From IMG/VR virus record IMGVR_UViG_3300029003_000089: a stretch of 49,856 bases of DNA; one strand, given 5' to 3'. The stretch is from a virus. Its lineage: Duplodnaviria > Heunggongvirae > Uroviricota > Caudoviricetes. Positions within the stretch are counted from its first letter, which is position 1. Each line of letters starts with the position of its first letter. Made by a program: the position numbers and the translations under genes. This document shows positions 3,920-37,899 of this stretch, piece by piece. A model generated the notes under the pieces. That model made no database searches and was not told the origin of the DNA. It saw only the letters and a program-made list of their open reading frames with translations.

Positions 3920-3943
3920 TGCCTTATCAGTTAACGCCGCAGT

Positions 3944-4974: not shown

Positions 4975-5053
4975 TCAGCTGCGTGCTGATGAGGCTTTTG
5001 GGTAATGCGCTGAAAGAATTCTTTATAAAAATAACATTACGGGAAAGGCAAAA

Positions 5054-5323
5054 ATGAGTGATAAAAAACTTATAAAAAAATCAAATAACTGTGTAGATGC
5101 ATATGCTGATGCATTTGGATATTCATCTTTTGGGGAAGATGACGATCGCTTAGGCTCCATATCTTTCTTTCAGCATGTTACAGAATGGGGCGCTGATGGT
5201 AGTAATGACACTGAAAACGTAAAGTACAACATTGCAACAATTCGCATGACGGAAGATTTAATGCTTAAACTCGCTGACTTTATTCGCGATCAGCATGATA
5301 GAGCTAAAACCAATAAGTCATAA
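5054..5323 (+). CDS. Hypothetical small acidic protein, first gene of cI-downstream cassette
   Basis: 89 aa ORF, same strand as cI, 80 bp downstream; no recognisable domain. Confidence 0.45.
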   Translation: MSDKKLIKKSNNCVDAYADAFGYSSFGEDDDRLGSISFFQHVTEWGADGSNDTENVKYNIATIRMTEDLMLKLADFIRDQHDRAKTNKS

Positions 5324-5331
5324 TATTAACA

Positions 5332-5772
5332 ATGAAACACGGTTATTACGAAGCTCCAAACCTAACTGAAAAGCTTGAACAAGCGGCAAGATCATCATCT
5401 TTGCATACTGCAGCATTTTCTCAATCAGCTGGTATGTCTGGCGGTAATGTACCTATGCTACAATCAAGTGGTAGCGGTGGCTCTGGGAGTAATAATGTGC
5501 TTGAATCGAAAGTTGCAAAGCTTGAGTCTGATGTGTCCTATATCCGACGTGACGTTGATGAGCTTAAGACAGATGTCAAATCTATCGACAGAAACATGAT
5601 CGCTGTTCTGGAGCGACTCGATTCAATAAAAGATTCACTAGCCAAAAAACCCTCCATCGATGCTGTCGATAGAAAGGTTTCAGACGCAAAGCTTGCGGTA
5701 TTGCTTGGTGTTCCAGCAATCATCGCTGCAGGAACAGGTCTTTATAAGCTATCAATGTACTTTTTTCTTTAG
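5332..5772 (+). CDS. Hypothetical coiled-coil protein with C-terminal transmembrane anchor (XhlA-like architecture)
   Basis: 146 aa; Gly/Ser-rich linker, heptad-like segment LESKVAKLESDVSYIRRDVDELKTDVKSIDRNMIAVLERLDSIKDSL, C-terminal hydrophobic LAVLLGVPAIIAAGTGLYKL; 9 bp after previous ORF. Confidence 0.5.
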   Translation: MKHGYYEAPNLTEKLEQAARSSSLHTAAFSQSAGMSGGNVPMLQSSGSGGSGSNNVLESKVAKLESDVSYIRRDVDELKTDVKSIDRNMIAVLERLDSIKDSLAKKPSIDAVDRKVSDAKLAVLLGVPAIIAAGTGLYKLSMYFFL

Positions 5773-5848
5773 TGCTTAAGAAACTGCTCGCCACCTTGCA
5801 TTACGCAAAGCGATTTTTCATTCCCTATTACCCTTTCTTATCCATCTA

Positions 5849-5878
5849 AACCCGGCCCCAGTGCCGGGTTTTCTTTTG
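5849..5878 (+). terminator. Rho-independent terminator after cI-downstream cassette
   Basis: aacccggc cccagt gccgggtt followed by ttcttttg. Confidence 0.65.
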
Positions 5879-6004
5879 CCTTCCCCTCATCACACAAACC
5901 GTTCAAAAAACCACCACGACCTCGCTTCAGTTATCGCTATGCGATGCAAGTCACAAAATTAATTCTTTTTGCTATCAAACATTTAATATCAAAACACATT
6001 TAAT

Positions 6005-6046
6005 AATAGCAATAAGTATTGATATCACCAATAGCAATGGCTATCA
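6005..6046. promoter_or_regulatory. oL-like operator pair of prophage A
   Basis: aatagcaataagtattga and aatagcaatggctatca share the AATAGCAAT..TATCA motif with the cro/cI intergenic region. Confidence 0.5.
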
Positions 6047-6143
6047 TCACCATGTCGCAACAACACAACGATACGGCAACCACCTGATTCACCGTTGCGA
6101 TGACCGCTTAGATCCGCAGCTTGATTTCAGCAGGCTTCGGGGA

Positions 6144-6530
6144 GTGCGAGGGGTGAAACGGACGCGTGAACGTCGGTGTGACCAGCTGAAATCAACTCAA
6201 CACTTCATACCTCAGTCGCTTCAACGAGGCGGCTTAGTTATGACAACCGGCGGCCATCCACCGCCTGAATGCGCGCAGAAGTCTCTATATGTTCAGCAGC
6301 CCAGCTTACGGGCAGGAGTTTTTATGGTTCATCAACATTACGGAACGCAGACCGTTAATCGCGGTGCGGTCATGCCAGGAATGCTGGTCAAACACAAAGA
6401 TGGTACCTGGACTGCATCAGCTAATTTACGCGGACGGCTTTATCTGCATCGCGGCATCGAGCGCACTTATACCCGTGATTTGCTCGTGGAAGTTTTTCTC
6501 GACGGACGCGGCAACGGCCTGAATCACTAA
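6144..6530 (+). CDS. Hypothetical early-left-operon protein (kil/cIII position), GTG start
   Basis: 128 aa ORF between oL-like sites and gam; Arg-rich N-terminus (VKRTRERR); no confident homology. Confidence 0.3.
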
Positions 6531-6605
6531 TCCCCTTTCCTGTTTACCTAATCAGCCCGGCATTTCGCAGGCGATATTTTCACAGCCATTTTCAGGAGTT
6601 CAGCC

Positions 6606-6902
6606 ATGAACGCTTATTACATTCAGGATCGTCTTGAGGCTCAAAGCTGGGCGCGTCACTACCAGCAGATCGCCCGTGAAGAGAAAGAGGCAGAACTGGC
6701 AGACGACATGGAAAAAGGTCTTCCACAGCACCTGTTTGAATCACTCTGCATCGATCATTTGCAACGCTGCGGGGCCAGCAAAAAAGCCATTACCCGTGCG
6801 TTTGATGACGATGTTGAGTTTCAGGAGCGCATGGCAGAACACATCCGGTACATGGTTGAAACCATTGCTCACCACCATGTTGATATTGATTCAGAGGTAT
6901 AA
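6606..6902 (+). CDS. gam: Gam (RecBCD inhibitor), lambda-like short form
   Basis: 98 aa translation [21 protein letters not shown]... matches remembered lambda Gam. Confidence 0.9.
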
Positions 6903-6907
6903 AACGG

Positions 6908-7693
6908 ATGAGTACAGCACTCGCAACGCTGGCTGGGAAGCTGGCTGAACGTGTCGGCATGGATTCTGTCGACCCACAGGAACTGATCACCACTCTTCGT
7001 CAGACGGCATTTAAAGGTGATGCCAGCGATGCGCAGTTCATCGCATTGCTGATCGTCGCCAACCAGTACGGCCTTAATCCGTGGACGAAAGAAATTTACG
7101 CCTTCCCTGATAAGCAGAACGGCATCGTTCCGGTGGTGGGCGTTGATGGCTGGTCCCGCATCATCAATGAAAACCAGCAGTTTGATGGCATGGACTTTGA
7201 GCAGGACAATGAATCATGTACGTGCCGGATTTACCGCAAAGACCGCAATCATCCGATCTGCGTTACCGAATGGATGGATGAATGCCGCCGCGAACCATTC
7301 AAAACTCGCGAAGGCAGAGAAATCACGGGGCCGTGGCAGTCGCATCCCAAACGGATGTTACGGCATAAAGCCATGATTCAGTGTGCCCGTCTGGCCTTCG
7401 GATTTGCTGGTATCTATGACAAGGATGAAGCCGAGCGCATTGTCGAAAATACTGCATACACTGCGGAACGTCAGCCGGAACGCGACATCACTCCGGTTAA
7501 CGATGAAACCATGCAGGAGATTAACACTCTGCTGATTGCCCTGGACAAAACATGGGATGTCGACTTATTGCCGCTCTGTTCCCAGATATTTCGCCGCGAC
7601 ATTCGCGCATCGTCAGAACTGACACAGGCCGAAGCAGTGAAAGCTCTTGGATTCCTGAAACAGAAAGCCACTGAGCAGAAGGTGGCAGCATGA
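6908..7693 (+). CDS. bet: Bet (Red-beta single-strand annealing recombinase)
   Basis: 261 aa translation matches remembered lambda Bet essentially throughout. Confidence 0.95.
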
Positions 7694-8370
7694 CACCGGA
7701 CATTATCCTGCAGCGTACCGGGATCGACGTGAGAGCTGTCGAACAGGGGGATGATGCATGGCACAAATTACGGCTCGGCGTCATCACCGCTTCAGAAGTT
7801 CACAACGTGATAGCAAAGCCCCGCTCAGGAAAGAAGTGGCCTGACATGAAAATGTCCTACTTCCACACCCTGCTGGCTGAGGTTTGCACCGGTGTGGCTC
7901 CGGAAGTTAATGCTAAGGCGCTGGCGTGGAGAAAACAGTACGAGAACGACGCCAGAACCCTGTTTGAATTCACTTCCGGCGTGAATGTTACTGAATCCCC
8001 GATCATCTATCGCGACGAAAGTATGCGCACCGCCTGCTCTCCCGATGGTTTATGCAGTGACGGCAATGGCCTTGAGCTGAAATGCCCGTTTACCTCCCGG
8101 GATTTCATGAAGTTCCGGCTCGGTGGTTTCGAGGCCATAAAGTCGGCTTACATGGCCCAGGTGCAGTACAGCATGTGGGTGACACGAAAAGATGCCTGGT
8201 ACTTTGCCAACTATGACCCACGAATGAAGCGTGAAGGCCTGCATTATGTCGTGGTTGAGCGGGATGAAAAGTACATGGCGAGTTTTGACGAGATGGTGCC
8301 GGAGTTCATCGAAAAAATGGACGAAGCACTGGCTGAAATTGGTTTTGTATTTGGAGAGCAATGGCGATGA
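7690..8370 (+). CDS. exo: Exo (Red-alpha 5'-3' exonuclease)
   Basis: 226 aa translation matches remembered lambda Exo; overlaps bet stop (ATGA). Confidence 0.95.
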
Positions 8371-8549
8371 CCCATCCTCACGATAATATCCGGGTAGGCG
8401 CGATCACTTTCGTCTACTCCGTTACAAAGCGAGGCTGGGTATTTCACGGTCTTTCTGTTATCCGAAATCCGCTGAAAGCCCAGCGGCTGGCTGAGGAGAT
8501 AAATAATAAACGGGGGGCGGTATGCACAAAGCATCTCCTGTTGAGTTAA
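8361..8549 (+). CDS. Hypothetical small protein
   Basis: 62 aa ORF in operon context after exo. Confidence 0.35.
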
Positions 8550-8713
8550 GAACGAGTATTGATTTGGCACATAGCCTTGCTCAAATTGGAGTCAGGTTTG
8601 TGCCAATACCAGCAGAAACAGACGAAGAATTTCATACGTTAGCCACATCCCTTTCACAAAAGCTGGAAATGATGGTGGCGAAAGCAGAAGCAGATGAGAG
8701 AGACCAGGTATGA
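8522..8713 (+). CDS. Hypothetical small protein
   Basis: 63 aa ORF, same strand. Confidence 0.3.
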   Translation: MHKASPVELRTSIDLAHSLAQIGVRFVPIPAETDEEFHTLATSLSQKLEMMVAKAEADERDQV

Positions 8714-8723
8714 CAACCACTGA

Positions 8724-9005
8724 ATGCATTTTTCTGGCAGCGGGCTTCATATTCTGTGTGCTTATGCTTGCCGACATGGGGCTTGTTCAGTGACACCTCA
8801 GCAAGAAAACGCCCTTCGCAGCATTGCCCGTCAGGCTAATTCTGAAATCAAAAAAGTCAGACAGCAGTTTCCGGATAAAAACGTCAATGACATTTGCCGT
8901 AGCGTACTGAAGAAGCACCGCGAAACGGTAACGCTGAAGGGATTCACACCGACTCATTTAAGCCTGGCAATCGGCATGTTAAACGGCGTCTTTAAGGAAC
9001 GATGA
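8724..9005 (+). CDS. Hypothetical protein
   Basis: 93 aa ORF; real start may be internal. Confidence 0.35.
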   Translation: MHFSGSGLHILCAYACRHGACSVTPQQENALRSIARQANSEIKKVRQQFPDKNVNDICRSVLKKHRETVTLKGFTPTHLSLAIGMLNGVFKER

Positions 9006-24925: not shown

Positions 24926-25486
24926 TCAGGAAGGAAGGGTTATTTCGGTGTGATGTTCGATATCGCCGTCAGGCCCGTTACCGGGCTCGAGATAATCAAC
25001 ATCAATCGCCAGCGTTTGCAGTTCATCCAGACTGTTCAGATCATCCTGCTGGCGGGTATCGTCTTCAGTCAGCTCGCTGATGACCGAAAAATCGAACTGA
25101 TAAATCAGCTCATGACGATTCAGATCCAGCAGCGTGCCGCCGTCATAGGTAATCGGGTTACCGCACGCCTCCGGGTTCCAGCCCAGCAGAGCCTTAAAGA
25201 GCATCTGCCGGACATCGTCCACCACATCATACGAGGCAAACTGACCGCGCTCATCACGCCCGTTACTCAGTATGACAACCACGGAGAAACCCTCTTTCAG
25301 CTCCTGCCAGTAGTCGGTCTGGCTTTTGTTTTCTCCCGGAGAATCATCACCCGGTACAACATATGCCGCCGGGAGTTTCAGCTTTCCGACCTCCGGCAGA
25401 TTTTTGAACTGGGCCGCGCCTGCGACCCGGTTTTCAAAATACGGACAGCGGGCACGCAGTGCAGCAATAACAGGCGTCAGTTTCAT
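24926..25486 (-). CDS. Hypothetical tail-completion/neck protein
   Basis: 186 aa between head-closure genes and sheath. Confidence 0.45.
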   Translation of the reverse strand: MKLTPVIAALRARCPYFENRVAGAAQFKNLPEVGKLKLPAAYVVPGDDSPGENKSQTDYWQELKEGFSVVVILSNGRDERGQFASYDVVDDVRQMLFKALLGWNPEACGNPITYDGGTLLDLNRHELIYQFDFSVISELTEDDTRQQDDLNSLDELQTLAIDVDYLEPGNGPDGDIEHHTEITLPS

Positions 25487-25989
25487 CTGTGTCGTCGCTC
25501 CGGCTTCAGTGATTTACGCAATTCCCGCGCCAGAAAATAGCGTGTCCAGCTGCGGTTCTTTTCAAGCGTTTCCACCATGAAGTTATTACGTGGAGCCAGT
25601 CGCCAGCCGCTGCCACCGGATGCACCACGATGATGGCTGCGACGACGCTTTGCCCCTCGCCTCACGCCATAGAACAAAAAAGCCGGATAAAAATCACCGG
25701 TGATACGGCGGTTTCCCTCTCCATTACGCTGGTTAGGGGCTATACGTGCCATAAAACCAGGGCGATGTTTACTGGCTCTGGGTACCATGTAACCAATCGA
25801 ACGAGCCAGGCGTCCGGTCTGATAACCGGGGTTTTCACCCGGTGCCGACCGCGCACGGCGCATCACCAGCCGACGGGCATCACGCATATGACGCTGACCA
25901 ATCGTGACAAACGCCCGCCGGACACGGGCGCGGTTAAAGCGCATCTCCGCGGGCTGCTGAAAATCAACGTGCAAAAAGGAAGTCGTCAT
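25483..25989 (-). CDS. Hypothetical head-tail joining protein (HK97 gp10-like position)
   Basis: 168 aa, basic; position. Confidence 0.45.
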   Translation of the reverse strand: MTTSFLHVDFQQPAEMRFNRARVRRAFVTIGQRHMRDARRLVMRRARSAPGENPGYQTGRLARSIGYMVPRASKHRPGFMARIAPNQRNGEGNRRITGDFYPAFLFYGVRRGAKRRRSHHRGASGGSGWRLAPRNNFMVETLEKNRSWTRYFLARELRKSLKPERRHR

Positions 25990-26374
25990 TGTTGCCTCCG
26001 TGACTCTGCCTACATTCGCCCAGCTCCGTACACTCCAGCAGCAGAAAGCGCCGCGCCCCGTTCAGATCGCGCTGACGTTTCACCCGGTACACACTGTCAC
26101 CGCAGACCACCTCATAATCAGCGGTGATCCCCCGGCGGTAACGAATGGTGATGTAATGGGTGATGGCGTCCCCGGTCTGCGCGGTTTCCTGCCAGGTGGT
26201 GGCACTGGTCTGGATAACCTTCGCCCATGTCCGGAACGTAACCGGGTATTGAGGCTCCACGCCAAAGTTATCCGCGGGCATATCCACCCGCTGGCGGATC
26301 AGGACGCGTTTATTCAGTTCACCGGGGTCCGGCAGAATGTAGGTTGCGCTGGTCTGCGCCTGACGAATTTTCAT
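25964..26374 (-). CDS. Head closure / head-tail adaptor protein
   Basis: 136 aa; position after connector. Confidence 0.55.
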   Translation of the reverse strand: MKIRQAQTSATYILPDPGELNKRVLIRQRVDMPADNFGVEPQYPVTFRTWAKVIQTSATTWQETAQTGDAITHYITIRYRRGITADYEVVCGDSVYRVKRQRDLNGARRFLLLECTELGECRQSHGGNNDDFLFAR

Positions 26375-26694
26375 TGCGGAAAGTACCTGTACGGGCCGAC
26401 AAGCCAGCCAAAACTCTGCGGCATGTCGAGTTTCTCCACTTCCGTAACCGACGAGCGGTTTTCGTAAAAATGGCTGATAAGCATCAGCATCCCCAGACGA
26501 ATATCATCCGGCAGGTGCAGCCCGTCCGGATCGCTGTCCGGAATGGTTTCATCCGGTGCATAGAGCTTCCGGTTCAGATACGTTTCCGTCCGCTTTTGTG
26601 CCGCACAGGCCAGCAGTTGCAGATGGCGGTCATCAGCATCGAAATCCTCATCCAGCCGGAGTTGGGCTTTAATCTCTTCCATTGTCAGAAGCAT
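26371..26694 (-). CDS. gp6-like head-tail connector protein
   Basis: 107 aa acidic protein directly after capsid-proximal small ORF. Confidence 0.6.
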   Translation of the reverse strand: MLLTMEEIKAQLRLDEDFDADDRHLQLLACAAQKRTETYLNRKLYAPDETIPDSDPDGLHLPDDIRLGMLMLISHFYENRSSVTEVEKLDMPQSFGWLVGPYRYFPQ

Positions 26695-26696
26695 AC

Positions 26697-26897
26697 TCAG
26701 CCCTCTTTACTGGTCGTGGCTTTTTTCTCTTTTGTCGCTTTACTGCTTTTTGCACTGGTTCCGCGCTCTGCTAACCCGGCCTGAAGTGCAACCTCCTGCA
26801 CCCGGGCAGGAAGCGCCCCGTCGTCATACTCACCGGCCCGAATGACCTCAACACGCATACCGTCCGGTGACCATTTCAGATCTTGTTTCAGGATCAT
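26697..26897 (-). CDS. Hypothetical small protein (head module)
   Basis: 66 aa between capsid and connector genes. Confidence 0.4.
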   Translation of the reverse strand: MILKQDLKWSPDGMRVEVIRAGEYDDGALPARVQEVALQAGLAERGTSAKSSKATKEKKATTSKEG

Positions 26898-26945
26898 GAT
26901 TCTTCACCCATCAGAACAGGGGCGCGGTTCCGCGCCCCTGAGTGA

Positions 26946-28151
26946 TTACGCCACTGCAATCTTCAGCAGTTTGATGGCCTGCGAATCGACCAGCATGCCG
27001 CCGGTGCGTTTGGTGGTATAAAAACCGACAAACGGTTTATTGGTGTACGGGTCACGCAGAATGCGGGTGCCGATACGGTCAACGATGGTGTAACCCCGTT
27101 TGAAGTTACCAAATGCAATGGCTTTCGCATCAGCGGCGATATCCGGCATCTGTTCGTTTTCAGCGATACCGTAACCCGCCAGAGAGGACGGCTGCCCCAG
27201 TTCCAGCCCCGGACGCCACAGATAGTTACCCTCGGTGTCTTTCAGCAGACGGATGGCAAACAGGCTGTTGTTGTTCATCATGAACTTCGCGCCAGTGCGG
27301 TGTGCCTTTCGCAGCGTGTAAATCAGTTTGATAATGGCGTCTGCGGTCACCGCAGTCGCGTCGCCGGATACAATATGCTGAAGTTTGCCGAACGCCCGGA
27401 CCTTATCGGTTTCATCCGTGGATTCATACGCCAGGAACCCTTTCGGCTTCTTGGTACCATCGCCGGTGGTAAAGGCAATTTCTTCCTGTTCGGCAAATTC
27501 GGTTGCCAGCTCGCTGTTGATCCAGGCCTCCACGTTGAAAAAGGCATCATCCAGCATTTTCTGGGTGGCCTGCGGGTTACCGTAGATTTCCCCCATGAAA
27601 GGTTCAATCAGCCCCAGTTTTGAGGTGGCAGTCTGGGAGCGCGCGTCAGTCTCGCCAACCCATCCGGAAGCCGTGCCGCCCAGATTCACCAGTTTTTTGT
27701 AGTCGGAACCACCAACGGTGATCACCGTGGCTTCCTGACGCATCACCACTTCATCTTTCAGCAGGTTAAGAATGTTGCGATCCAGTTCTTCCGGCACGGC
27801 GTAGCCACCGTCTTCATCGGTGCCCACCTGCAATGCCTTACGCTCCAGATCGCGCAGACCGTCTTCACGGCCTTTACGCAGGAAGCTCACAAACGCCTCT
27901 TTATGCTCGGTGGCCAGTTTATTTTGCGCACCACCTGCCGGACGTTTCAGCTCAAGCAGCTCTTTTTCAAGATCGCTTTTGAGGTTTTCCAGCTCGCTGA
28001 GTTTCCCGTTCAGGGTTTCCACCTGCCCGGCAAGTTTGCCTTTTTCCTGCTCAATCGCATCCACGCGCTTGTCGTTCTTTGCTTTGAAGTCGTCAAACTT
28101 CTGCTGCAGCTCCTGCGCGACCTGTTCGACATCTTTAATATCAACCGCCAT
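26946..28151 (-). CDS. Major capsid protein, HK97-like
   Basis: 401 aa; coiled-coil delta-like N-terminus; downstream of prohead protease. Confidence 0.85.
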   Translation of the reverse strand: MAVDIKDVEQVAQELQQKFDDFKAKNDKRVDAIEQEKGKLAGQVETLNGKLSELENLKSDLEKELLELKRPAGGAQNKLATEHKEAFVSFLRKGREDGLRDLERKALQVGTDEDGGYAVPEELDRNILNLLKDEVVMRQEATVITVGGSDYKKLVNLGGTASGWVGETDARSQTATSKLGLIEPFMGEIYGNPQATQKMLDDAFFNVEAWINSELATEFAEQEEIAFTTGDGTKKPKGFLAYESTDETDKVRAFGKLQHIVSGDATAVTADAIIKLIYTLRKAHRTGAKFMMNNNSLFAIRLLKDTEGNYLWRPGLELGQPSSLAGYGIAENEQMPDIAADAKAIAFGNFKRGYTIVDRIGTRILRDPYTNKPFVGFYTTKRTGGMLVDSQAIKLLKIAVA

Positions 28152-28165
28152 CGTATTTCTCCTGA

Positions 28166-28852
28166 TTAGAAGTTCAGATTTTTCAGTGCATTCAGTGCAG
28201 AGCCCACATCCTCAGCGTCGCGCAGGGACAGTGCGCCATAGCCCCCGGCCATGAATGCTTTGGCCTGGGTACGGGAGAGTCCGACATCACGCAGGACTCT
28301 TTCGATTTTTTTCTGTTCGGGGATTTCCCCGCGGGCCAGCGCGTTCTTGACGTCGCTGATCCGCGCCTCGTCGTTAGACGGAAACGTCACCAGACTGACT
28401 TCCCAGAGGTCGATTTCTTTCAGCAGAAAGGCTTCTTTCGTCTGGTCGTATTCCCAGTCCTTCAGGACGTACCCAATAGAAAGGCCGGTTAACGAACCGG
28501 CCTTCATGTGTGCATGTGCGCGTTTTGCCAGAGGATCATCATCAATGAGCAACCGCCCCCTGACGTAAAGCCCGACATCGTCTTCCTTCATTTCGGTGTA
28601 AACACCGATGGGCTCATCCATGCGGTGCTGCCAGAGCAGCGCAGGTAACGCTTTTCTGTCACTCCACGCCCGCAGGGAAGCAGCAAATGCCCCGGACATC
28701 ACCACATCATCGTGGCTGTCCTTTACACCAAAGACGGAGCCATACCCTTCAAACTCACCGGAGTCACTGACAGATTTCAGACTCAGCGGTACATCAAGAC
28801 GTTGTTTCGTCTGCATTGGCGTTATCCTTCTGCTTACCGGCTTTACTGCCAT
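28166..28852 (-). CDS. Prohead protease (HK97 family)
   Basis: 228 aa between portal and capsid. Confidence 0.8.
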   Translation of the reverse strand: MAVKPVSRRITPMQTKQRLDVPLSLKSVSDSGEFEGYGSVFGVKDSHDDVVMSGAFAASLRAWSDRKALPALLWQHRMDEPIGVYTEMKEDDVGLYVRGRLLIDDDPLAKRAHAHMKAGSLTGLSIGYVLKDWEYDQTKEAFLLKEIDLWEVSLVTFPSNDEARISDVKNALARGEIPEQKKIERVLRDVGLSRTQAKAFMAGGYGALSLRDAEDVGSALNALKNLNF

Positions 28853-30035
28853 CGGAGGGTTTCGTGGTCATGTTCATCGGTGTGAGATAGACATCCCCAC
28901 CGGGACGCGGATTCATATCTTCCAGGTCGCGGCAGTCATTGGGAGAGTAAATTCCCCAGTTAATCCCGGTGGCGTAGGCTTCAAAACGGGACTTCATATC
29001 CCCGCGCAGTAACGCCCCGGCGTTAAATTTGGCGTAATAAACGCCCTGCTTACTTTTTCGTACCAGTCCGGTGTTGATCCGCTGTTCGATGCGGGTCAGA
29101 TACGGCACCAGTGAATAGTTGATAAATCCGAGCCCCAGTTCTTCGATATTGTTGAAGGTGGCGCGATCGGTGTTCTGCACCATGTGCAACGGTACCCGGA
29201 ACAGACGACAGATTTCTTCAAGCTGAAACTTGCGGGTTTCCAGGAACTGGCTGTCCTCGGCGTTCAGCGCCATCGACTTCCAGTCCAGCCCCATCTCAAG
29301 GATCATCGGGCGGTGAGCATTGCCAAGCCCGGTGTGACGCTCCTCAAAATCTTTCTTCAGGCGCTCATAAGCCTGATCTGACAGCGTCTGCTCTGTACGC
29401 AACACACCCGACGTCACCGCACCATTGCTGAACAGTCTGGCCCCGTGCTCTTCAGTCGCTGCCGCCAGCGATATTGCCTCGCGGGCATAGGCGACGGGAT
29501 TCAGCCCCACCAGTCCGTCCAGCGTCAGCGTGCGCACATGCCAGATATCCTCCTGGCTCAGCACATCCGTGGAGCCGTCCGGGAATGTGACCTGATAGAC
29601 CGGCTCCCAGCTACTGTTAAGCTTCGGTACCACACAGCCGGGATCGACGGGCAGCAGTTCAGCCACTTCGCCAAATGCTTTCACTTTGTAGGCGTAAAAG
29701 TTTCCCCGCAGGCACAGACAGGTGACCACCAGCTCCCAGAACTCCTGCGGCGTCATATAGCCATTGGGATGCGTGGAGATCAGCTTATGCAGACGTTCGC
29801 CAGTGGCTCTCTGCTTCAGGCTGCCGTTCAGGTGATACAGGTTGCAGGGCAACATCCCGACCGACTCCGCCAGCACCCTGACACAGGAAAAAACCGCCGT
29901 CAGTCGCATGGCCCGCTGGCTGCTGATCTGCTTTCCGGTATAGGTGTCGTAGGACAACCCGATAGCATCCGCCAGCTCTGCTGGCGTGGTCACCGGTGCG
30001 TCACTTTTTCGTTGAAATAATCCCGAAAAGAACAC
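28794..30035 (-). CDS. Portal protein (HK97 family)
   Basis: 413 aa downstream of terminase large subunit. Confidence 0.85.
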   Translation of the reverse strand: MFFSGLFQRKSDAPVTTPAELADAIGLSYDTYTGKQISSQRAMRLTAVFSCVRVLAESVGMLPCNLYHLNGSLKQRATGERLHKLISTHPNGYMTPQEFWELVVTCLCLRGNFYAYKVKAFGEVAELLPVDPGCVVPKLNSSWEPVYQVTFPDGSTDVLSQEDIWHVRTLTLDGLVGLNPVAYAREAISLAAATEEHGARLFSNGAVTSGVLRTEQTLSDQAYERLKKDFEERHTGLGNAHRPMILEMGLDWKSMALNAEDSQFLETRKFQLEEICRLFRVPLHMVQNTDRATFNNIEELGLGFINYSLVPYLTRIEQRINTGLVRKSKQGVYYAKFNAGALLRGDMKSRFEAYATGINWGIYSPNDCRDLEDMNPRPGGDVYLTPMNMTTKPSDGSKAGKQKDNANADETTS

Positions 30036-30217
30036 TATTTACCTCCGCCGACAGACGACTGTGTACGGTCAAGATATCGCGCCACCAGCCACGACCAGAA
30101 CAGGCACAACGCCCCGGCAACAACAAACCCCGCCGGGGGATAAATCAGCCAGGCACCATACGCCAGCAAAAGCGCCCCCAGCACGCCCACCAGAGGCGCG
30201 AGAATCAGCATGATCAT
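30035..30217 (-). CDS. Hypothetical small membrane protein
   Basis: 60 aa, two hydrophobic segments. Confidence 0.4.
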
Positions 30218-30228
30218 AATTACCTCAG

Positions 30229-31962
30229 TTAAAGCGAGCGGATCCCATAGGACTCAATGTGGTCAGACAACGTGTCTTCTTTCTCGTACAGCATGGCTCT
30301 GCCAACCGCCATAATCAGCGCAACTGCACCATCGATTTTGTTTTCCGCCTGCTCTTTGACGGGCTTCACCACATCATCGTTACCCGGAATGGTTTTGCCG
30401 ACCACGTTGCCGATACACCAGGTCATGATGGGATTGCCATCATGATGAAAGCGCCCCGATTCAATTGCCGCTTCCAGCTCTTTCATCGGGTCGGACATGT
30501 TGGTGTAGTTCTGAATGATAGTGATGGGGTTCAGGTCTTCATCAGCAAGGTCATGTGAGAGCCCGGTCGCCCCGAAGGGGTCGATGGGTGACTCGCTGAC
30601 CGGGCTGATTTTGTTCGCCGCTTTGGCCTCCTCGAGGATGTAGCGATAATCCACCTCCGCACCAGCGGTAACGGTCAGAACGCCCATTTCCACCCATTTC
30701 TGAAAGCGTTCGGCTGTCCGGCGATCTTCATTTTTCTCGACGCTGTACACCGTGTCATACGGTACCCAGAAGCGCGGAGCCACACTGTAGTAATACGTTT
30801 TACCGTCAATCTCGCGGGTATAAAGTCGCGCCATACTGTTCATATCCAGCTTACGCGCCAGGTCAAAGGCCAGAATGCACGGCTGCCCCTCGAACTGCTC
30901 AAGGGTCAGTGATTTATCCTCGCAGCTCTGCCAGCTCACCAGGTTGAAATACGCCGAACGCGCCGACACCCAGATATTGAGGTGTTTTGTTTTAAAGACG
31001 TTTGCCAGACGGGCGTTATTTTTCGCACGCTGCTGCTGACTTAACAAAAATTCGCGATAAACCGACACGCCAATATTCGGGTTGGCTTTTTCCAGCACCT
31101 GCGGGTCGGTCCAGTCATCGCCTTCGTCAACGGTATAGATGATCCCGAACAGTTCATCGTTGGGTACCGACCCGTTGAGCATCTCGATAACTTCCCGTCG
31201 CTTGTCGTAGCACGGCCCCTCAATGTTGTACCCTGCAGTAGTAATGGCCCACATCAGTGGCTGACGTCGCGCCCCCATCCCGGTAAGCATCGTGGTGTAA
31301 AGCGCATCGGTGGCGTGCTCGTGATATTCATCCACCACCGCACAGTGGGGTGATGAACCATCACCGGGGTTACCGATCAGCGGTTCAAACCGCGCGCCAT
31401 CCTCCGGACGGTTCATGTTTGAGGCGTTAACCTCAATCCCGAACGCTTCCGTCAGCATGGGTGTGCGTTTACACATCAGTCGCGCCGGGCGAAAGACTTC
31501 CCACGCCTGTTTCTCTGTCGTGGCACCGGAATACACTTCCGCGCCAAACTCGTTATCACAGGCAAAACAATACAGGGCGACACCGGCAGAGATTGCCGAT
31601 TTGCCGTTCTTACGGGGGATTTCGGTATACACCTCCCGGAAGCGGCGCAGCCGGGTACCTTTATTGACCCAGCCAAACGCACAGCAGATCACAAAGAGCT
31701 GCCACGGCTCCAGCGTGATGGGCATCCTCTTGAATGCCCACTCCCCCTTGGTGTGTGGCAACAGCTGAATAAATTTGGCGGCCCGTTCAGCCAGGTCCTT
31801 GTCGAAGCGGTAACGAAACGACTTACTTTTTTCCGCCATCAGGTCATCAAGATGGCGCTGGCAGGCCTGAATCACAAACTGGCAGGCCACAATATTTCCG
31901 CGCACGACATCACGGGCATACTGATTGGCAGCATTTACGTTGGGGTAAGATTTCCGGCTCAT
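30229..31962 (-). CDS. Terminase large subunit
   Basis: 577 aa; position between small subunit and portal; overlaps small-subunit stop. Confidence 0.9.
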
Positions 31963-32462
31963 GATTCGATGATTTTCAGAAACGGGTTAGTGGCTTTCTT
32001 CTGCCCCGCCAGGCCAATCAGACGCTGGCGGCTGCTGGGGTCGAGTCCGAGCATTGCCCCCGTACTGCTCATCTCGGACTCCTGTTCTTTTTTGGCGGTC
32101 AGCTCCGGATTTTTGACCATACCGCCCATTGCACCGGTGATGGTGTTGCCCTGTCTGGCAATATTTTTCACGGCACGTCGCCAGAACTCGTAGGCCACGC
32201 ACCACCGCTCAAGCACCGCGAGGTCAGTCACGCACAGCAGGCCCTGACCGCAGAGTTCTTTAGTTGTCAGTTGCCACATGATCGTAGCGAGAGGGAGATC
32301 TTCTTCAGCGAACCACTCCGGTGGCTCAACACCTTTGATGGGCGTAAAAACAGGTTCATCTTTATTCAGGGCTCGCTTGCCGGGGTTTCCGGCCAGCGCC
32401 TTGCGCGCCGTTGGCTTGGGGCGACGCCCGGAACGCCCCGCCGTTCCAGCCATATGCGGCAC
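31959..32462 (-). CDS. Terminase small subunit (P27-like)
   Basis: 167 aa, basic N-terminus (GRSGRRPKP). Confidence 0.75.
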
Positions 32463-32480
32463 TCCTGGTTAAATTTCATT

Positions 32481-32545
32481 TTTCGCGGGTATAAAAAAAC
32501 GATGGGGCGGGCAGTCCTGAAGGCGTCAGGTCACAGGGATTTGAC
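32481..32545 (-). terminator. GC-rich hairpin plus T-run on minus strand between HNH and terminase genes (terminator and/or cos-region structure)
   Basis: ggggcggg ... cccgccc inverted repeat with internal cctga/tcagg; minus strand followed by TTTTTTTAT. Confidence 0.45.
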
Positions 32546-32577
32546 CCGCCCTCCCCTCTGGCAGTGGAAACTGGTTC

Positions 32578-32928
32578 TTACTTCAGCCGTTCACGGGCCG
32601 TCTTCGCCTTATGACACGGCCAGCACAGACTCTGCAGATTACTGTCGGCATCAGAGCCGCCATGCGCTTTAGGGATGATGTGGTCAACGGTTTTCGCCTC
32701 ACGCGCCACACCGGCACGCAGACATAACTGACACAGGCCTTTGTCACGCTTGAGCACACGTTCACGGATAACATCCCATTTCGAACCATAACCGCGCTGG
32801 TGACGGGACAGGCCGCGTTGATATTGGATCCATCCTTCACCACGATGTTTAACACAATACCCAGAATTGTCTGTTGTAGTCCCCGCACACCCGTGCTTAC
32901 GACATGCTCGGGGAATTCGTGACGCCAT
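32578..32928 (-). CDS. Phage HNH endonuclease (packaging-associated)
   Basis: 116 aa; CxxC ... DHIIPKAHGG ... CWPCH motifs; immediately upstream of terminase genes. Confidence 0.85.
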   Translation of the reverse strand: MASRIPRACRKHGCAGTTTDNSGYCVKHRGEGWIQYQRGLSRHQRGYGSKWDVIRERVLKRDKGLCQLCLRAGVAREAKTVDHIIPKAHGGSDADSNLQSLCWPCHKAKTARERLK

Positions 32929-32965
32929 ATTATCTCCAATAAAAAACCCGCTAAAGCGGGTCTTG

Positions 32966-33391
32966 TTAGCAACTTATTAACATTGCATGGTTATTTAGCA
33001 TCCAGTCGTTTAACTCATTTTCTGCCCATTCTACGTCTATAAGCACTTTGCATAAATTCGAAGGTTTAAGAAGTTCACCTGCTGACGCCCCTGAAGGCCA
33101 AAAATGCACAGCTACATAATTTTGAGTTACATATGTTTTTTTTATAGTTTGTCGTGTTTCGATTGAGATAATCACATCCGATATTTTACATTTTCTTTTT
33201 TTGACCAAAAAATCATGAATTCGCTCCCCAACAGCTTCCTTAAAAATAGTTGAGTTAGCATGTTGATTAAATGTTGCAAAAATAAGTTTAAGTTCGCAAT
33301 TTAAAGCCTTAGCTTTTGATATTCCTAATTGCATAGCCTTGTGAGCAGCAAGTATATGATTGCTATTTGCCCTGATTACATACTTTTCCAT
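32966..33391 (-). CDS. Hypothetical protein in AT-rich moron between lysis cassette and HNH/terminase
   Basis: 141 aa ORF; strongly AT-rich with ~375 bp AT-rich upstream non-coding region. Confidence 0.5.
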   Translation of the reverse strand: MEKYVIRANSNHILAAHKAMQLGISKAKALNCELKLIFATFNQHANSTIFKEAVGERIHDFLVKKRKCKISDVIISIETRQTIKKTYVTQNYVAVHFWPSGASAGELLKPSNLCKVLIDVEWAENELNDWMLNNHAMLISC

Positions 33392-33765
33392 ATTCGCTCT
33401 CCCAAAAAATCAGAGGTATATAATAAGAACATAGAAAAATTTATCAATAAAATCAGCAACAAAAGTAGCTCATCAGCATTACTGACTAAAAGTTCTAATA
33501 TCATTAACAAACGAGTATTGCACTGTACACTTTTTCAAAACGGACAAGTCTTTCAGATACTCACATCGACAACCAATAAAGAACACCAATTGTACTCATC
33601 TCGCGTCAATTCATTGTAGCCTGTGAGCCTATGCTTTCTGATCACAACGCTACCAGTATTATCGCTTCAAGCAGGAATGAACTCCGTATTTTAGCATCCA
33701 AAGGAATTAGCTGTCCCCAAACAGGGTATTAGAACGTAACAATATCACTTTACTAATATAATCAG

Positions 33766-34227
33766 CTAGTTAACACACTGCGCTCTGATGTATTCCTGTA
33801 GGTAATTAACCTGTGCAGTTATCTTGTCGATTCCACTTCGGAGGCGGTAATAATTGAGTTCAGAATCTGCTGTAAGTCTTGGGCTTTCTCCATCGCCCAT
33901 GCCGCTGGCTCTGGTCGTTGATTTTGCACAGGTGGCGGCGACTTGCAGGCGCTTACGCCCAGCAGAAACATCAGCACGGAGGCTTTCGATAGTCGCGTTA
34001 GCATCAGCAAGCTCCTTTGTGTATCTGGCGTCAAGTTCTGCTACGTCACGTTGACGCTTCTGCATATCAGAAATGGTCGCCATAGCCGAATCTAATGCCA
34101 TAGCATTCTCATCACGCTGCTTTTTGTATTCAATAGCTTTATTGTGGTAATGATTCGCTGAACAGATAAAAGAACCGATGACAGTAAAGAAGAATGCAGA
34201 GATAGCCAGCTTATAGCTCAACTTCAT
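33766..34227 (-). CDS. Rz: Rz-like i-spanin
   Basis: 153 aa; N-terminal TM then coiled coil; overlaps endolysin end. Confidence 0.75.
   Translation of the reverse strand: MKLSYKLAISAFFFTVIGSFICSANHYHNKAIEYKKQRDENAMALDSAMATISDMQKRQRDVAELDARYTKELADANATIESLRADVSAGRKRLQVAATCAKSTTRASGMGDGESPRLTADSELNYYRLRSGIDKITAQVNYLQEYIRAQCVN
33819..34004 (-). CDS. Rz1: Rz1-like o-spanin lipoprotein embedded in Rz (+1 frame)
   Basis: Lipobox-like VSAC followed by proline-rich KSPPPVQNQRPEP; fully nested in Rz. Confidence 0.6.
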   Translation of the reverse strand: MLTRLSKASVLMFLLGVSACKSPPPVQNQRPEPAAWAMEKAQDLQQILNSIITASEVESTR

Positions 34228-34687
34228 TTACCACCCCACCAGCCTCTTTAAACCGGGAAATCAGGTCACCGATTTTATGTTCATACTGACCGTAACCTGC
34301 ACCAGGTAACGACGCCCAGATATTGCTGCAACGATCGATAGCCTGACGAATATCGCCGCGATCAATCATCGGTAAAGCGCCACGCTCTTTAATCTGCTGT
34401 AATGCAACAGCATCCTGGCTTTTAGGAGAGAAGTCTGTCAGCCCTAACTGCTTGCGGTAAGCATCCCACCAGCGCGAAAGAAGTTGATAACGGCCTGCAG
34501 CTGTTGATTTGAGTTTCGGGTTTAGCGTGACAAGCTTGCGAGGGTGATCGGAGTAATCAGTGAAGAGTTCTCCACCGACAATAACATCATAACCGTGGTT
34601 ACGTGTCGGTTGTCGCCCGTTATCCGTTCCTTCTGACCATGCCACCATATCGAGGAAAGCTTTACGCTGGGAATTTAGTACCTGCAT
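34211..34687 (-). CDS. R: Endolysin, lambda R-like
   Basis: 158 aa; matches remembered lambda R across most of its length (EGTDNGRQPTRNHGYDVIVGGELFTDYSDHPRK...). Confidence 0.9.
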   Translation of the reverse strand: MQVLNSQRKAFLDMVAWSEGTDNGRQPTRNHGYDVIVGGELFTDYSDHPRKLVTLNPKLKSTAAGRYQLLSRWWDAYRKQLGLTDFSPKSQDAVALQQIKERGALPMIDRGDIRQAIDRCSNIWASLPGAGYGQYEHKIGDLISRFKEAGGVVNEVEL

Positions 34688-34690: not shown

Positions 34691-35017
34691 TTACTCCTTA
34701 GAGCCACCAAACTTGTTACCGATTACTCGCATTGCAGCCCCACGAATAGCATCGACACCGATCAGCCCCACCCCACCACCAATGGCAACAGATAGTGATT
34801 TAGGCCATCCGACATACTCAAGCGCGGATGCAAATGTCAGCGTCAGAGCGCCACAGAGTAAAATCTCAAGCGTTTTTCGCTTCCAGCCACCACCACCGCC
34901 AAAATAGGCAATGCGCAAGCCAGCCATAACGATCGACATAATCACTGCGCCCAGTGGTGTGTCTCCACGCCACCAGCTCTGGACCAACTCCAGCCAGGTA
35001 TTTGGGTTATGAGGCAT
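34691..35017 (-). CDS. Holin
   Basis: 108 aa with hydrophobic helices, directly upstream of endolysin. Confidence 0.7.
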   Translation of the reverse strand: MPHNPNTWLELVQSWWRGDTPLGAVIMSIVMAGLRIAYFGGGGGWKRKTLEILLCGALTLTFASALEYVGWPKSLSVAIGGGVGLIGVDAIRGAAMRVIGNKFGGSKE

Positions 35018-35196: not shown

Positions 35197-35307
35197 GTGT
35201 GGCGAAGTAACCACTCTTAACAGAGTACTGTATTTTTTGCGTACGCATTAGTATTTTTTGAAGTATTATCAACACCAATTGTTCAAAACCATTAAAAGGA
35301 TGTTGTT

Positions 35308-36342
35308 ATGACTGCATCAGCGACCCCCACTAATATCACTCATAAGTTTATTGTTCACATTATGAACAAGGAACAACAGGGGTTAGCCACCATTATTCCT
35401 TGTCCTTCAGAAAAACCTGTTCAGCAAGCATCAAAAGACCTCTCTAACGCACTTACTGAAAGGTACTCTGGGAGAGCAGGTAAAGGATATGGGAAATTTG
35501 AAGATGACCGCGATAGTTACCCTATGGGTAATATCGTTGATGATTATTTCGTAAATAAAACACATAGTTTTTATGATACTAGTATCCGAATGATCAATCA
35601 TTTAAAAGCCAGAGCCGATGATGAATCAATGTCTACTGGTGGTTATGTAATAATTGCCCATAATGAGGTAAATGGAAATCATTATTTGATGGTTGCAATC
35701 CTAACTTCAGCAGTTGGCTCTTCAGTCCACGATTTTGAAATTCAAGAAAGTGAATATCTAGACATTGCTAAACTTCGAGTAGCGGGACGAATTGACTTAA
35801 CTGGGCGCCAGAATGGCAAAGAGAGATATATTAGCTTTCTAAAGGGGCAAAATTCAGTAGCAGGTTATTTCAAAAAGTTTTTAGGTTGCAACGATATTCT
35901 AATTGCCAAACAAGAAACAACAAAATTACGGAATGCACTTTTAGAATTTGCTACTGAAAGAGGTTTTGAACCAGAGGCACGTGAAGAGTTCCTAAATAAG
36001 GCTCATGAAAAATTAAAAAATTTAAATCGTTCTGGTGAAACTTTCGACACTCAAATTTTTGCAAACGAGATATGGCCAACTGCTCCTGAGTTGTTAGTTG
36101 AAAAGTTAACCAATGACGATCTGGAGTTCTCTGATGGGTTCGTGCCTGATGGCAACGTTATACGTGGGCTTGTTAGTTTCAAAGGAAAGTCCAAACATTG
36201 GTCTCTGAAATTCGAGCGTGCGGCCTTGCATGATGGCAGCGTTCTTTATGATTCAGAAAACGATAAATTGATACTTACCGAGATTCCGGATACGCTAAGA
36301 TCAGAGATTTTATCAGAATTAGGTGAAGAGGATGAGCAGTAA
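35308..36342 (+). CDS. NdpA/YejK-family nucleoid-associated-protein homolog (first gene of opposite-strand cargo cassette)
   Basis: 344 aa; blocks GGYVIIAHNEVNGNHYLMVAILTS, YLDIAKLRVAGRIDLT, RYISFLKG, DKLILTEIPDTLR align with remembered E. coli YejK; SD aaaagga upstream; AT-rich. Confidence 0.65.
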   Translation: MTASATPTNITHKFIVHIMNKEQQGLATIIPCPSEKPVQQASKDLSNALTERYSGRAGKGYGKFEDDRDSYPMGNIVDDYFVNKTHSFYDTSIRMINHLKARADDESMSTGGYVIIAHNEVNGNHYLMVAILTSAVGSSVHDFEIQESEYLDIAKLRVAGRIDLTGRQNGKERYISFLKGQNSVAGYFKKFLGCNDILIAKQETTKLRNALLEFATERGFEPEAREEFLNKAHEKLKNLNRSGETFDTQIFANEIWPTAPELLVEKLTNDDLEFSDGFVPDGNVIRGLVSFKGKSKHWSLKFERAALHDGSVLYDSENDKLILTEIPDTLRSEILSELGEEDEQ

Positions 36343-37510
36343 AAATCAGAGAACCTTCAAAGACTTAGTGACTATTTACAAGGCCGCTACATTTGCAGGT
36401 ACCCTATCTGAAGCATCACTCATTCTTTCAAACGAGGAGCTCTGTGACATCATCAACGATATCACAGAGAATCCCCATGATTTTGGCATCACCCTTGAAT
36501 CTGGCAACATTGAGTTAGGCCAAACTATAACCTTACATATAACCCCCCCAAAATTACGATTGGGGCAGCTACATTTCTCTTTTAATGAGTATTTAAAAAA
36601 TCCTAAAAATAGGATAAAGGAAGCCAGTAACTTCTTTATAATCGAACTTAATTATCACAACAGGGATAAAAAGTCGCCTGCTATTATATCCAAGTACAGA
36701 GATGTTTTGAGCTTAATTACTTTATTCAAAGATTGTTCTGCTTATTTAGATGAAACAAATTTTGAATTGGTATTCGTCGAATCCAACGTACTAAAAATTC
36801 CAGTAAATTATTCTAGCGATGACCTTATGAATGTTAATGGAGATCTGATTCATAATTTGATCGCAAACTTTGCAGAAGATACGCATAAAGATCAAAAACT
36901 TACTATTTTAGCAAGTAGTATAAAATCATCATGTGAATCTAAAACTAAAGAAACCTCTTTTTCCTTCATGTTAAGGGATTTAGGACAACTTTATGAAAGT
37001 TATCAAAAAGGATACAAAGTATTCGTTTCTGGTTTTTCTTACGAGAAAATACTGGATCAGTTACGAGTAGCCAAAATAGAAGAGATGGGGAAAATACATA
37101 AAGTATTCAGTGACATACAAAATCAGATATTAGGTATCCCCGTCGCAACAATTATCGTTGCGACTCAAATGAAGCAGGCTAATGGTTGGGATAGTCAAGC
37201 ATTAATAAACACAGCTGTAGTGTTGGGTGCATTGTTCTTCACTATTATGATTATATTTGTTCTATTTAATCAATGGCAAACTTTAACAGCAATAAATGAT
37301 GAGTTAAATCATAAAAAACAACAAGCAGAATATAACTTCAAGGCTATTTACGAAGATATAAAGGATACATTTGATAGTTTAACCACAAGATTGCTTGTTC
37401 AGAAAGTTGTTTTTGCCTCATTAGGAATTATAGTTTTATGTGGCTTATATCTTACATTTAGATTCTACTTTTTACTTACACCTTATGCTATTACATATTT
37501 ATTTAGCTGA
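36323..37510 (+). CDS. Hypothetical protein with two C-terminal transmembrane helices (second gene of cassette)
   Basis: 395 aa; ~285 aa soluble N-terminal region, then hydrophobic ALINTAVVLGALFFTIMIIFVLF and VVFASLGIIVLCGLYLTFRFYFLL; start overlaps gene 1 by 20 bp. Confidence 0.6.
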   Translation: MKRMSSKNQRTFKDLVTIYKAATFAGTLSEASLILSNEELCDIINDITENPHDFGITLESGNIELGQTITLHITPPKLRLGQLHFSFNEYLKNPKNRIKEASNFFIIELNYHNRDKKSPAIISKYRDVLSLITLFKDCSAYLDETNFELVFVESNVLKIPVNYSSDDLMNVNGDLIHNLIANFAEDTHKDQKLTILASSIKSSCESKTKETSFSFMLRDLGQLYESYQKGYKVFVSGFSYEKILDQLRVAKIEEMGKIHKVFSDIQNQILGIPVATIIVATQMKQANGWDSQALINTAVVLGALFFTIMIIFVLFNQWQTLTAINDELNHKKQQAEYNFKAIYEDIKDTFDSLTTRLLVQKVVFASLGIIVLCGLYLTFRFYFLLTPYAITYLFS

Positions 37511-37527
37511 CGGCCAATATGGCCGTC
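37509..37527. terminator. Perfect hairpin between convergent cassette gene and Q gene
   Basis: gacggcca tat tggccgtc followed by taataaatt. Confidence 0.5.
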
Positions 37528-37534
37528 TAATAAA

Positions 37535-37882
37535 TTACCCATGTATTATATATATAACTGCATCAATAAATCCCAATGCAGCTTGCAACTTTTTTCTTAT
37601 AGTCCCATCAGAGCATTTTCTCTTCTTCGCAATAGTGCGTAATGAGATACCGATAACAAAGTGAGCAATGATTAGCTCATATTCTTCAGGCCTATATTTA
37701 CGCAACCGAGCCACACAACTGTCTATCATAATGCCTTCGTCATCATCACACTGAATCCGGGACTTTTTGCCATGAGGTAAAAGTCCCTTGAAGCCAGCGG
37801 CTACCGGTTGCCAGTCCACTCCGCTATTGTCTGAAGCAGCCCAAGCTCCCCAACGATCCATTACTTCATACATATCACGCAT
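37535..37882 (-). CDS. Late-gene antiterminator Q (QuuD/phage-82-type family)
   Basis: Resembles remembered DLP12 QuuD (ERWGAWAA, AAGFKGL, CDDD, CSDG); likely start at internal MRDMYEV. Confidence 0.7.
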   Translation of the reverse strand: MRDMYEVMDRWGAWAASDNSGVDWQPVAAGFKGLLPHGKKSRIQCDDDEGIMIDSCVARLRKYRPEEYELIIAHFVIGISLRTIAKKRKCSDGTIRKKLQAALGFIDAVIYIIHG

Positions 37883-37899
37883 CAACTTTCTCCACAAAA

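Follow-up and report, generated by a model that had tools for sequence, protein, structure and literature searches.

What is a small, strongly AT-rich gene doing between the lysis and packaging genes of a temperate phage? The question is raised by IMG/VR virus record IMGVR_UViG_3300029003_000089, a stretch of 49,856 nucleotides, the whole of which we call the window and whose host element is an SfV/P27-like E. coli prophage. Here an open reading frame (ORF) of 141 amino acids (aa) lies on the minus strand between the last gene of the lysis cassette, Rz, and an HNH endonuclease gene that stands before the terminase genes. Our analysis indicates that positions 32938..33508 (minus strand) very probably form a moron, a self-contained accessory cassette, and that the gene product, which belongs to an unnamed phage family, is likely to play a part in conflict, be it in defence or in counter-defence. 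We propose that the moron is a horizontally exchanged unit, comprising promoter, ribosome-binding site, the 141-aa ORF and an intrinsic terminator, which would occupy a cargo hotspot between the lysis genes on one side and HNH, cos and the terminase genes on the other.

The cassette and its slot in E. coli

The ORF occupies window 32966..33391 (start ATG at 33391..33389, stop codon at 32966..32968), as an earlier reading of the locus made from the letters alone (the sequence-only reading) had proposed. Its remark that the ORF holds no recognisable domain stands as well, since searches of Pfam, PHROGs, NCBIfam and PADLOC returned no match below E = 0.08, and so does the contrast in composition that it had drawn between an AT-rich block of about 0.8 kb and GC-richer flanks. 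The block 32940..33765 has a GC content of 35.0%, against a window mean of 49.1% (standard deviation 6.7%) and flanking values of 46.5% in Rz, 54.7% in HNH and 58.5% in the small terminase gene (TerS), and no more than 1.8% of 826-bp windows reach so low a value; the ORF itself is at 33.8% GC, with a GC3 of 26%. The AT-rich upstream region, which had been put at about 375 bp, measures 374 bp at 35.6% GC, and the claim is refined rather than simply upheld, in that some 221 bp of this spacer are an indel and only the proximal 117 bp or so travel with the gene. The elements of the cassette and its upstream spacer are:

33447..33420, minus strand: sigma-70-type promoter match TTGATA-16-TATTAT, 10/12 to consensus, its -10 element ending 28 nt before the ATG
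33397..33403, minus strand: Shine-Dalgarno site GGGAGAG, 5 nt upstream of the ATG, read from the sequence
32966..33391, minus strand: 141-aa ORF of the unnamed phage family, between Rz and HNH
32938..32964, minus strand: intrinsic terminator AAGACCCGC-UUUA-GCGGGUUUU with U-run, directly after the stop codon, from sequence and RNAfold
33392..33508, minus strand: proximal upstream segment travelling with the gene, about 117 bp, 28% GC, marking the left boundary of the mobile module
about 33507..33727: indel segment of about 221 bp, present in the window and in IMGVR_UViG_2897375277, absent in E. coli H22

The left boundary is located by two comparisons: DNA homology to the Citrobacter and Logan copies of the gene begins at window 33508, and the deletion in H22 starts at about window 33503-33507. 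We also considered whether the 221-bp indel (41.6% GC, no ORF) could be an RNA or a repeat element; it has no Rfam match, no excess RNA folding (z-score +0.89) and no relatives outside the same phage.

The signals around the ORF resemble those of a separate transcription unit. When 150-nt windows are drawn at random from phage loci, only about 1% score as high as the promoter match, and such outstanding matches are confined to the window clade, where the -35 element and the flanking TTTTATTGATAAAT block are identical in the Citrobacter copy. That copy carries GAGGAGGG at the Shine-Dalgarno position, and in its terminator the stem is invariant and the loop altered. The hairpin at 32938..32964 was missed by an automated terminator scan, because the stem absorbs part of the T-run. 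Across the family a canonical terminator lies just downstream of the gene in 9 of 11 lineages. In the window the ribosome-binding site of HNH begins 10 nt beyond the terminator, and a terminator in this position implies that HNH and the terminase genes need Q-modified, terminator-resistant transcription. We therefore picture two modes of expression: without any need for Q, host RNA polymerase would start at the gene's own sigma-70 promoter and stop at the terminator, and in late growth Q-modified polymerase would read through it, so that the protein would also be made together with the late genes.

Is the gene part of the phage core, or cargo? It is present in just one of 5,426 complete E. coli genomes, strain H22, whose copy has 98.7% identity and sits in the same Rz-HNH slot; 3,498 of these genomes match some part of a 2.4-kb query spanning the lysis, HNH and terminase flanks, many of these matches being to endolysin or Rz alone. 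The contents of the slot were read in sampled relatives that retain both flanks (Rz and HNH):

iss (a bor homologue), on the opposite strand
KilA-N with two unknown genes
single unknown ORFs of 74, 83 and 161 aa
no cargo, in phage 720R4

The other cargo proteins in these relatives have no Pfam assignment, and the 161-aa protein of strain 82.0311, tried as a homologue of the 141-aa protein, was negative in hhalign. The idea of a cargo-insertion slot, put forward in the sequence-only reading, is thus borne out, and the relatives do not show the gene as a conserved, syntenic part of the core that serves lysis or structure. On this comparison the gene appears to be accessory, not core.

Window positions 1..9000 match the chromosomes of E. 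coli TUM14697, Rb-23 and 1002W03 at 100% identity. In the whole-collection search the ORF region had no match in any of the three, so that strains which otherwise match differ in the prophage, or at least in its cargo.

Two closer comparisons bear on whether the gene is needed and whether it is real. IMG/VR contig IMGVR_UViG_2897375277_000008 (L023) runs colinear with the window for 8.3 kb (97% identity). Its copy of the gene (6001..6426) is interrupted at codon 43 by a TAA in frame, which is a natural knockout or else an error of sequencing; such a stop would mean that the gene is dispensable. The copy in Citrobacter portucalensis, at 76% protein and 78.5% DNA identity to the window, is homologous over window 33508..32506, a span that takes in the ORF, the terminator and HNH. 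Its ratio of nonsynonymous to synonymous substitution rates (dN/dS) relative to the window is 0.26, and that of a second pair, the metagenomic loci L017 and L024, is 0.30; between nearly identical E. coli copies it is about 1, on only 5 substitutions. The value of 0.26 shows that this is a real gene under purifying selection.

In Citrobacter portucalensis (L008, 1..13765) the gene is part of a mobile element that has decayed and adjoins a tRNA gene (CAT anticodon), between mug and rpoD. Other genes of this element are those for a DUF927 primase, SSB, ProQ, PerC, a cytosine methylase and the pair GmrSD_N + HEPN_MAE_28990, and a phage portal-like fragment lies directly upstream of the family gene.

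The surroundings in the window, with the lysis cassette on one side and HNH and terminase on the other, are as previously described, with Pfam matches for Rz and HNH; holin, endolysin, Rz, HNH, TerS and the large terminase gene (TerL) are all on the minus strand.

37535..37897: Q gene
34691..35017, minus strand: holin, lysis cassette
34211..34687, minus strand: endolysin, lysis cassette
33766..34227, minus strand: Rz i-spanin (Pfam Phage_lysis, 1e-38), last gene of the lysis cassette and upstream border of the slot
33819..34034: Rz1 o-spanin, embedded in Rz
32578..32928, minus strand: HNH endonuclease (Pfam HNH, 8e-16), in an HK97 gp74-like position, last gene before cos and downstream border of the slot
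31959..32462, minus strand: TerS, P27-type
30229..31962, minus strand: TerL

The genome records of SfV and SfIV stop about 3 nt past query position 225 (the homologous position), which places cos near window 32521 and the ORF some 0.45-0.9 kb from the right end of the virion DNA. In lambda the DNA that is packaged last enters first. If this rule holds here, the gene would be among the first DNA to reach a new cell.

The family beyond the window

How widespread is the gene, and does it always travel to the same place? When 1.84 billion representative proteins were searched exhaustively with an HMMER profile, 13 clusters were returned, nearly all of 139-142 aa and 20-39% identical to the window protein. 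Look-ups of these clusters led to E. coli (the window type, on about 240 contigs), Escherichia albertii, Citrobacter with Salmonella, and Klebsiella, so that the family gene is found on hundreds of contigs from four genera, every entry being labelled 'hypothetical protein'. No copy of the gene appeared in a tblastn search of 50,697 GenBank phage records or in scans of species-representative genomes, a literature search produced no paper matching the family, and the distant relatives, compared with Pfam, PHROGs, NCBIfam and PADLOC, had no family match. In all nine contexts with readable flanks the gene has lysis genes on one side and terminase genes on the other, and it runs in the direction of the late operon:

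E. coli (window, H22, IMG/VR): Rz-HNH slot
E. albertii (L031-33): Rz, gene, HNH, TerS
Citrobacter and Salmonella (L018, L025-28): lysis-terminase slot
metagenomic (L017, L024): M15 endolysin, DUF2570, Acb2-like gene, gene, 169-aa ORF, Mom, Terminase_2
L019: lysozyme, 177-aa ORF, gene, Terminase_2
L014, L015: lysis-terminase slot
Klebsiella (L030): holins, GH19, further genes, Acb2-like gene, 74-aa ORF, gene, further genes, Terminase_4
L012: TerS fragment downstream of the gene

The position is kept across non-homologous endolysins (GH24, M15, GH19) and small terminases (Terminase_4, Terminase_2), and in chromosomal defence islands the gene was never seen except in prophage remnants. Family genes are lower in GC than their surroundings, with the exception of Klebsiella L030 (48.1%, against 49.5% for the locus). 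From these loci the family appears to be restricted to temperate phages of enterobacteria, always in the lysis-terminase slot. A functional pair of the gene with HNH was also considered, the two being adjacent in the window, in Citrobacter and in E. albertii, but it was rejected, as phages of the Terminase_2 type carry the gene without HNH.

E. albertii phage L031 bears on how the gene evolves. For 7.8 kb, from inside HNH through packaging and head genes (window 32838..25001), it matches the window at 97% identity, and its slot protein (861..1286) has just 24% identity to the window protein. The recombination breakpoint between the two lies inside HNH (window 32838; L031 from 1447 onward). We infer from this combination that the family stays in the slot and that recombination inside Rz and HNH replaces one of its alleles by another. 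Allele swapping of this kind is typical of conflict genes, and it would be hard to reconcile with a co-adapted terminase partner.

One relative departs from the single-domain form. The protein P0014, from a 1.2-kb contig (L011, Logan SRR29845380), has 354 aa and joins the family domain to a C-terminal phrog_29321 domain, of which a free-standing homologue (P0015) adjoins the integrase of a Wohlfahrtiimonas prophage. The C-terminal domain contains an RHDCVH motif (Rx4H, HEPN-like); its assignment as HEPN was by eye only and was dropped, as it has no Pfam or PDB support and matches only phrog_29321, a family of unknown function.

The Rz-HNH slot is not the only place in these late regions where cargo is found. 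Between Q and holin the window carries a second AT-rich cargo block (35308..37510, plus strand), antisense to the late operon. Its products are an NA37/YejK-like nucleoid-associated protein of 344 aa (Pfam, 8e-69) and, overlapping with it, a membrane protein of 395 aa (phrog_5023). The pair has sub-threshold NCBIfam matches to the DS1_1/DS1_2 anti-phage pair (1e-15 and 1e-19) and no match in PADLOC, and is probably a divergent two-gene defence system. This slot (window 35252..37563) is itself variable: H22 has two different plus-strand ORFs of 312 and 190 aa there (L001, 8222..9759), the IMG/VR relative L023 has a different insert of 1.7 kb (2461..4140), and the Citrobacter phage L018 has a DNA methylase and an AAA_15/21 ATPase, in antisense (2984..5818).

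Fold and likely role

What could such a protein do? From an alignment of 14 family sequences AlphaFold gives a confident model (pLDDT 92, pTM 0.88) of a seven-stranded alpha/beta domain; a run with 3 near-identical sequences gave pLDDT 45, and the model used here is that of the 14-sequence run. The best Foldseek matches are ASCE/RecA-like P-loop domains (probability 0.97-1.0, query-normalised TM 0.52-0.62). In BFVD these are ATPase domains of large terminases (E = 1.5e-4 to 1e-3, query-normalised TM up to 0.62), and in the PDB they are the Pol-theta helicase domain, the phi29 gp16 ATPase, the TerL proteins of Sf6 and P74-26 and the C-terminal domain of HelD (E at least 5e-3), packaging ATPases making up 10 of the top 50 PDB matches. 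A profile search against PDB sequences returned noise only, and hhalign against the window's own TerL gave a probability of 0.1%. The Walker A motif (GxxxxGK[ST]) is absent in all 15 family sequences checked, and the loop after strand 1 is unconserved across the family. The conserved positions are S47, R66, E78, W98, E121-W122 and L127, and most of the most conserved residues fall at or near strand ends and helix starts in the secondary structure of the model. The model suggests a RecA/ASCE-like alpha/beta fold that has lost its P-loop, and a protein that is more likely a binder than an NTPase, catalysis being unlikely.

Neither a signal peptide nor a lipobox nor a membrane segment is present in the sequence (Kyte-Doolittle means over 19 residues reach 0.75 at most), so that the protein is predicted to be soluble and cytoplasmic. 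This divides the proposal of the sequence-only reading that the gene might be a lysogenic-conversion or exclusion factor. What stands of it is a cargo gene in a variable slot, with a promoter match, a terminator and deviant composition; a mechanism of the lambda bor type, or exclusion at the membrane, is unlikely.

Orientation and neighbours offer further hints. Late-region defence cargo is typically antisense, as seen for iss, for the window's NA37 pair and for the methylase and ATPase of L018. In phi80 the gene taiEcA is likewise antisense to the late operon, and atiEcA, a counter-defence gene, is sense-oriented (PMC11364771). In L017 and L024 an Acb2_Tad1_hairpin gene (PF24729) lies immediately upstream of the family gene on the same strand, with no terminator-like hairpin in the aligned spacer between the two in L017, and Mom lies two genes downstream. 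An Acb2-like gene lies upstream on the same strand in Klebsiella L030 as well; its product is 33% identical to the Acb2-like protein of L017/L024, and the family proteins of these loci share 44% identity. The run of genes at L017 1057..3335 and L024 4674 onward, from the Acb2-like gene through the family gene and a 169-aa ORF with a weak ParB_N match to Mom, resembles a small anti-defence island.

Taken together, sense orientation, an Acb2/Tad1-like neighbour and a protein without membrane or lipobox features make counter-defence at least as likely as conversion or exclusion. A place close to the DNA end that, to go by lambda, should be the first to enter a new cell would favour it too. We rank a cytoplasmic counter-defence role first, a tentative choice that we hold with less than even confidence, prophage defence second, and a Bor-like role at the envelope as unlikely. 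The protein, which is small, single-domain, soluble and free of any catalytic motif, would act by binding a partner rather than by NTP hydrolysis, and its most likely target would be an immune component of the host or of a prophage, which it would neutralise.

Several observations weigh against counter-defence, or against the picture of the cassette on which it draws. The promoter is a consensus match alone, and distant family members score an ordinary 7-9/12; the E. albertii allele (L031) has no downstream terminator; and a gene with its own promoter and terminator would suit a prophage-expressed defence equally well. The adjacency to Acb2-like genes occurs in only 2 of about 9 lineages and may just reflect a shared hotspot. 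The structural matches are generic, with TM values of 0.5-0.6 and no PDB match below E = 1e-3. The domain fused to the family domain in P0014 has its free homologue in an integrase-proximal accessory region of a prophage, which has the look of defence, and the slot itself is documented for Tai genes (PMC11364771) and also houses iss.

Could the gene then be an anti-phage defence of the prophage? It would be expressed constitutively from the moron promoter and would act in the cytoplasm, by abortive infection or interference, to block a growth step of superinfecting phages. Besides the slot's record and the P0014 fusion, the promoter-ORF-terminator layout with low GC is typical of morons expressed in lysogens, interference with packaging would suit a fold like that of the TerL ATPase, the Citrobacter copy adjoins GmrSD and HEPN genes, and the diversity of alleles in a single slot is deep. 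We nevertheless consider defence possible but rather unlikely, since the protein matches none of the anti-phage models in PADLOC or NCBIfam, is unrelated to TaiEcA, is encoded in the sense of the late operon in all contexts, has only 141 aa without an enzymatic or membrane motif, and is missing from chromosomal defence islands save for prophage remnants. A helper of the late operon, by which we mean a protein with a degenerate ASCE domain that partners terminase or HNH, adjusts cos cleavage or packaging and owes its place in the slot to this task, would account for the sense orientation, for the strict position just upstream of terminase genes of differing types, and for the many large-terminase ATPase domains among the best Foldseek matches. 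It is made improbable by the nearly universal lack of the gene in close relatives with the same terminase and HNH genes, by the nonsense allele in an otherwise intact phage contig, by the absence of profile similarity to the phage's own TerL, and by the deviant GC and separate terminator; moreover, the pairing of alleles only 24% identical with packaging genes that are 97% identical argues against co-adaptation with terminase.

The remaining readings can be given much less weight. An envelope-acting conversion factor of the Bor/Iss/Lom type, or a membrane protein of superinfection exclusion, is suggested by moron anatomy and by iss in the same slot of relatives, but it is very unlikely for a compact soluble alpha/beta domain without signal peptide, lipobox, hydrophobic segment or Pfam Bor match, encoded in the orientation opposite to that of iss/bor. 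That the ORF is decaying, or spurious in AT-rich junk DNA, could be read from the one copy with a premature stop and from the dN/dS of about 1 between near-identical E. coli copies (only 5 substitutions); it is hardly credible against dN/dS values of 0.26-0.30 at larger distances, a length held at 139-142 aa among relatives 20-39% identical, a fold predicted with confidence from the 14-sequence alignment and an occurrence on hundreds of contigs in four genera. We also reserve a small share of the probability for functions outside all these readings.

A more speculative version, which we regard as a long shot, takes the fold and the position at face value. Here the family would be a stripped-down copy of the terminase/helicase ATPase core without its P-loop, a molecular mimic carried beside the packaging genes; to go by the model, it could be a decoy for sensors of the large-terminase fold (Avs-type), or a dominant-negative that poisons packaging by competing phages or satellites. 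If so, the rapid replacement of alleles would follow from an arms race over recognition of the packaging machinery.

Relation to known systems

The kind of cassette described here, the moron, is already known, the protein family is unnamed and uncharacterised, and our findings overturn no expectation. Their interest lies in the place. It is becoming apparent that temperate phages of enterobacteria keep a stock of defence and counter-defence genes (iss/bor, Tai/Ati, Acb2-like sponges) at the lysis-terminase junction. To these we can now add another unnamed family, of about 141 aa, which in Escherichia, Citrobacter, Salmonella and Klebsiella prophages is restricted to this site. It is distinguished by strict fidelity to the slot, deep allele swapping, a terminase-like fold predicted to be P-loop-less, and recurrent adjacency to Acb2-like genes. 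The confident model, the swapping alleles and this adjacency make the gene a concrete and cheap candidate for screens of defence and anti-defence. If counter-defence is indeed its role, a RecA-like domain without P-loop would be a new fold in the anti-immune repertoire, and the sense-oriented, terminator-capped genes of the slot would be a class worth mining.

How does the cassette compare with what is known? The moron concept is reportedly due to Juhala, Hendrix and colleagues, with HK97 gp15 and lambda bor and lom as examples. Like the morons of lambdoid and HK97-like phages, the 141-aa gene stands as an extra gene between conserved late genes, comes with a sigma-70 match of its own and a factor-independent terminator, deviates in composition and is absent in close relatives; unlike the characterised ones, its product is predicted to be cytoplasmic, the envelope being where gp15, Bor and Lom act, and it is unrelated to any characterised moron product. 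Compared with the Bor/Iss lipoproteins in particular, it has no match to Pfam Lambda_Bor, no lipobox and no hydrophobic N-terminus, and among the known anti-phage systems in PADLOC 2.0 and NCBIfam no model is matched by it. The ASCE/RecA P-loop NTPases (the TerL ATPase, the RecA domains of SF2 helicases, phi29 gp16) supply its best structural matches; it differs from them in having no Walker A motif and no profile similarity to TerL, its 141 aa amounting to a bare core domain. With the Acb2/Tad1-type sponges (PF24729) it shares the character of a small soluble phage accessory protein and, in two lineages, the neighbourhood, but neighbourhood is the only link, for there is no similarity of sequence or fold and the slot of the window phage has no Acb2-like gene.

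The closest parallel is with Tai and Ati of phi80. Tai genes are found upstream of the module for packaging (PMC11364771), and the 141-aa gene lies in a hotspot in that same position, though location alone does not define membership. Homology to phi80 TaiEcA (204 aa) and AtiEcA (76 aa) was rejected at hhalign probabilities of 0.5% and 0.07%, as was homology to phi80 gp49 (below 1%). In contrast to taiEcA, which runs antisense to the late operon, the 141-aa gene is in sense. It is thus like Ati, a small sense-oriented gene of the slot, and atiEcA is a counter-defence gene (PMC11364771). The divergence of alleles is of a similar order in the two systems, with identities of 22-43% in Tai (PMC11364771) and 20-39% in the 141-aa family.

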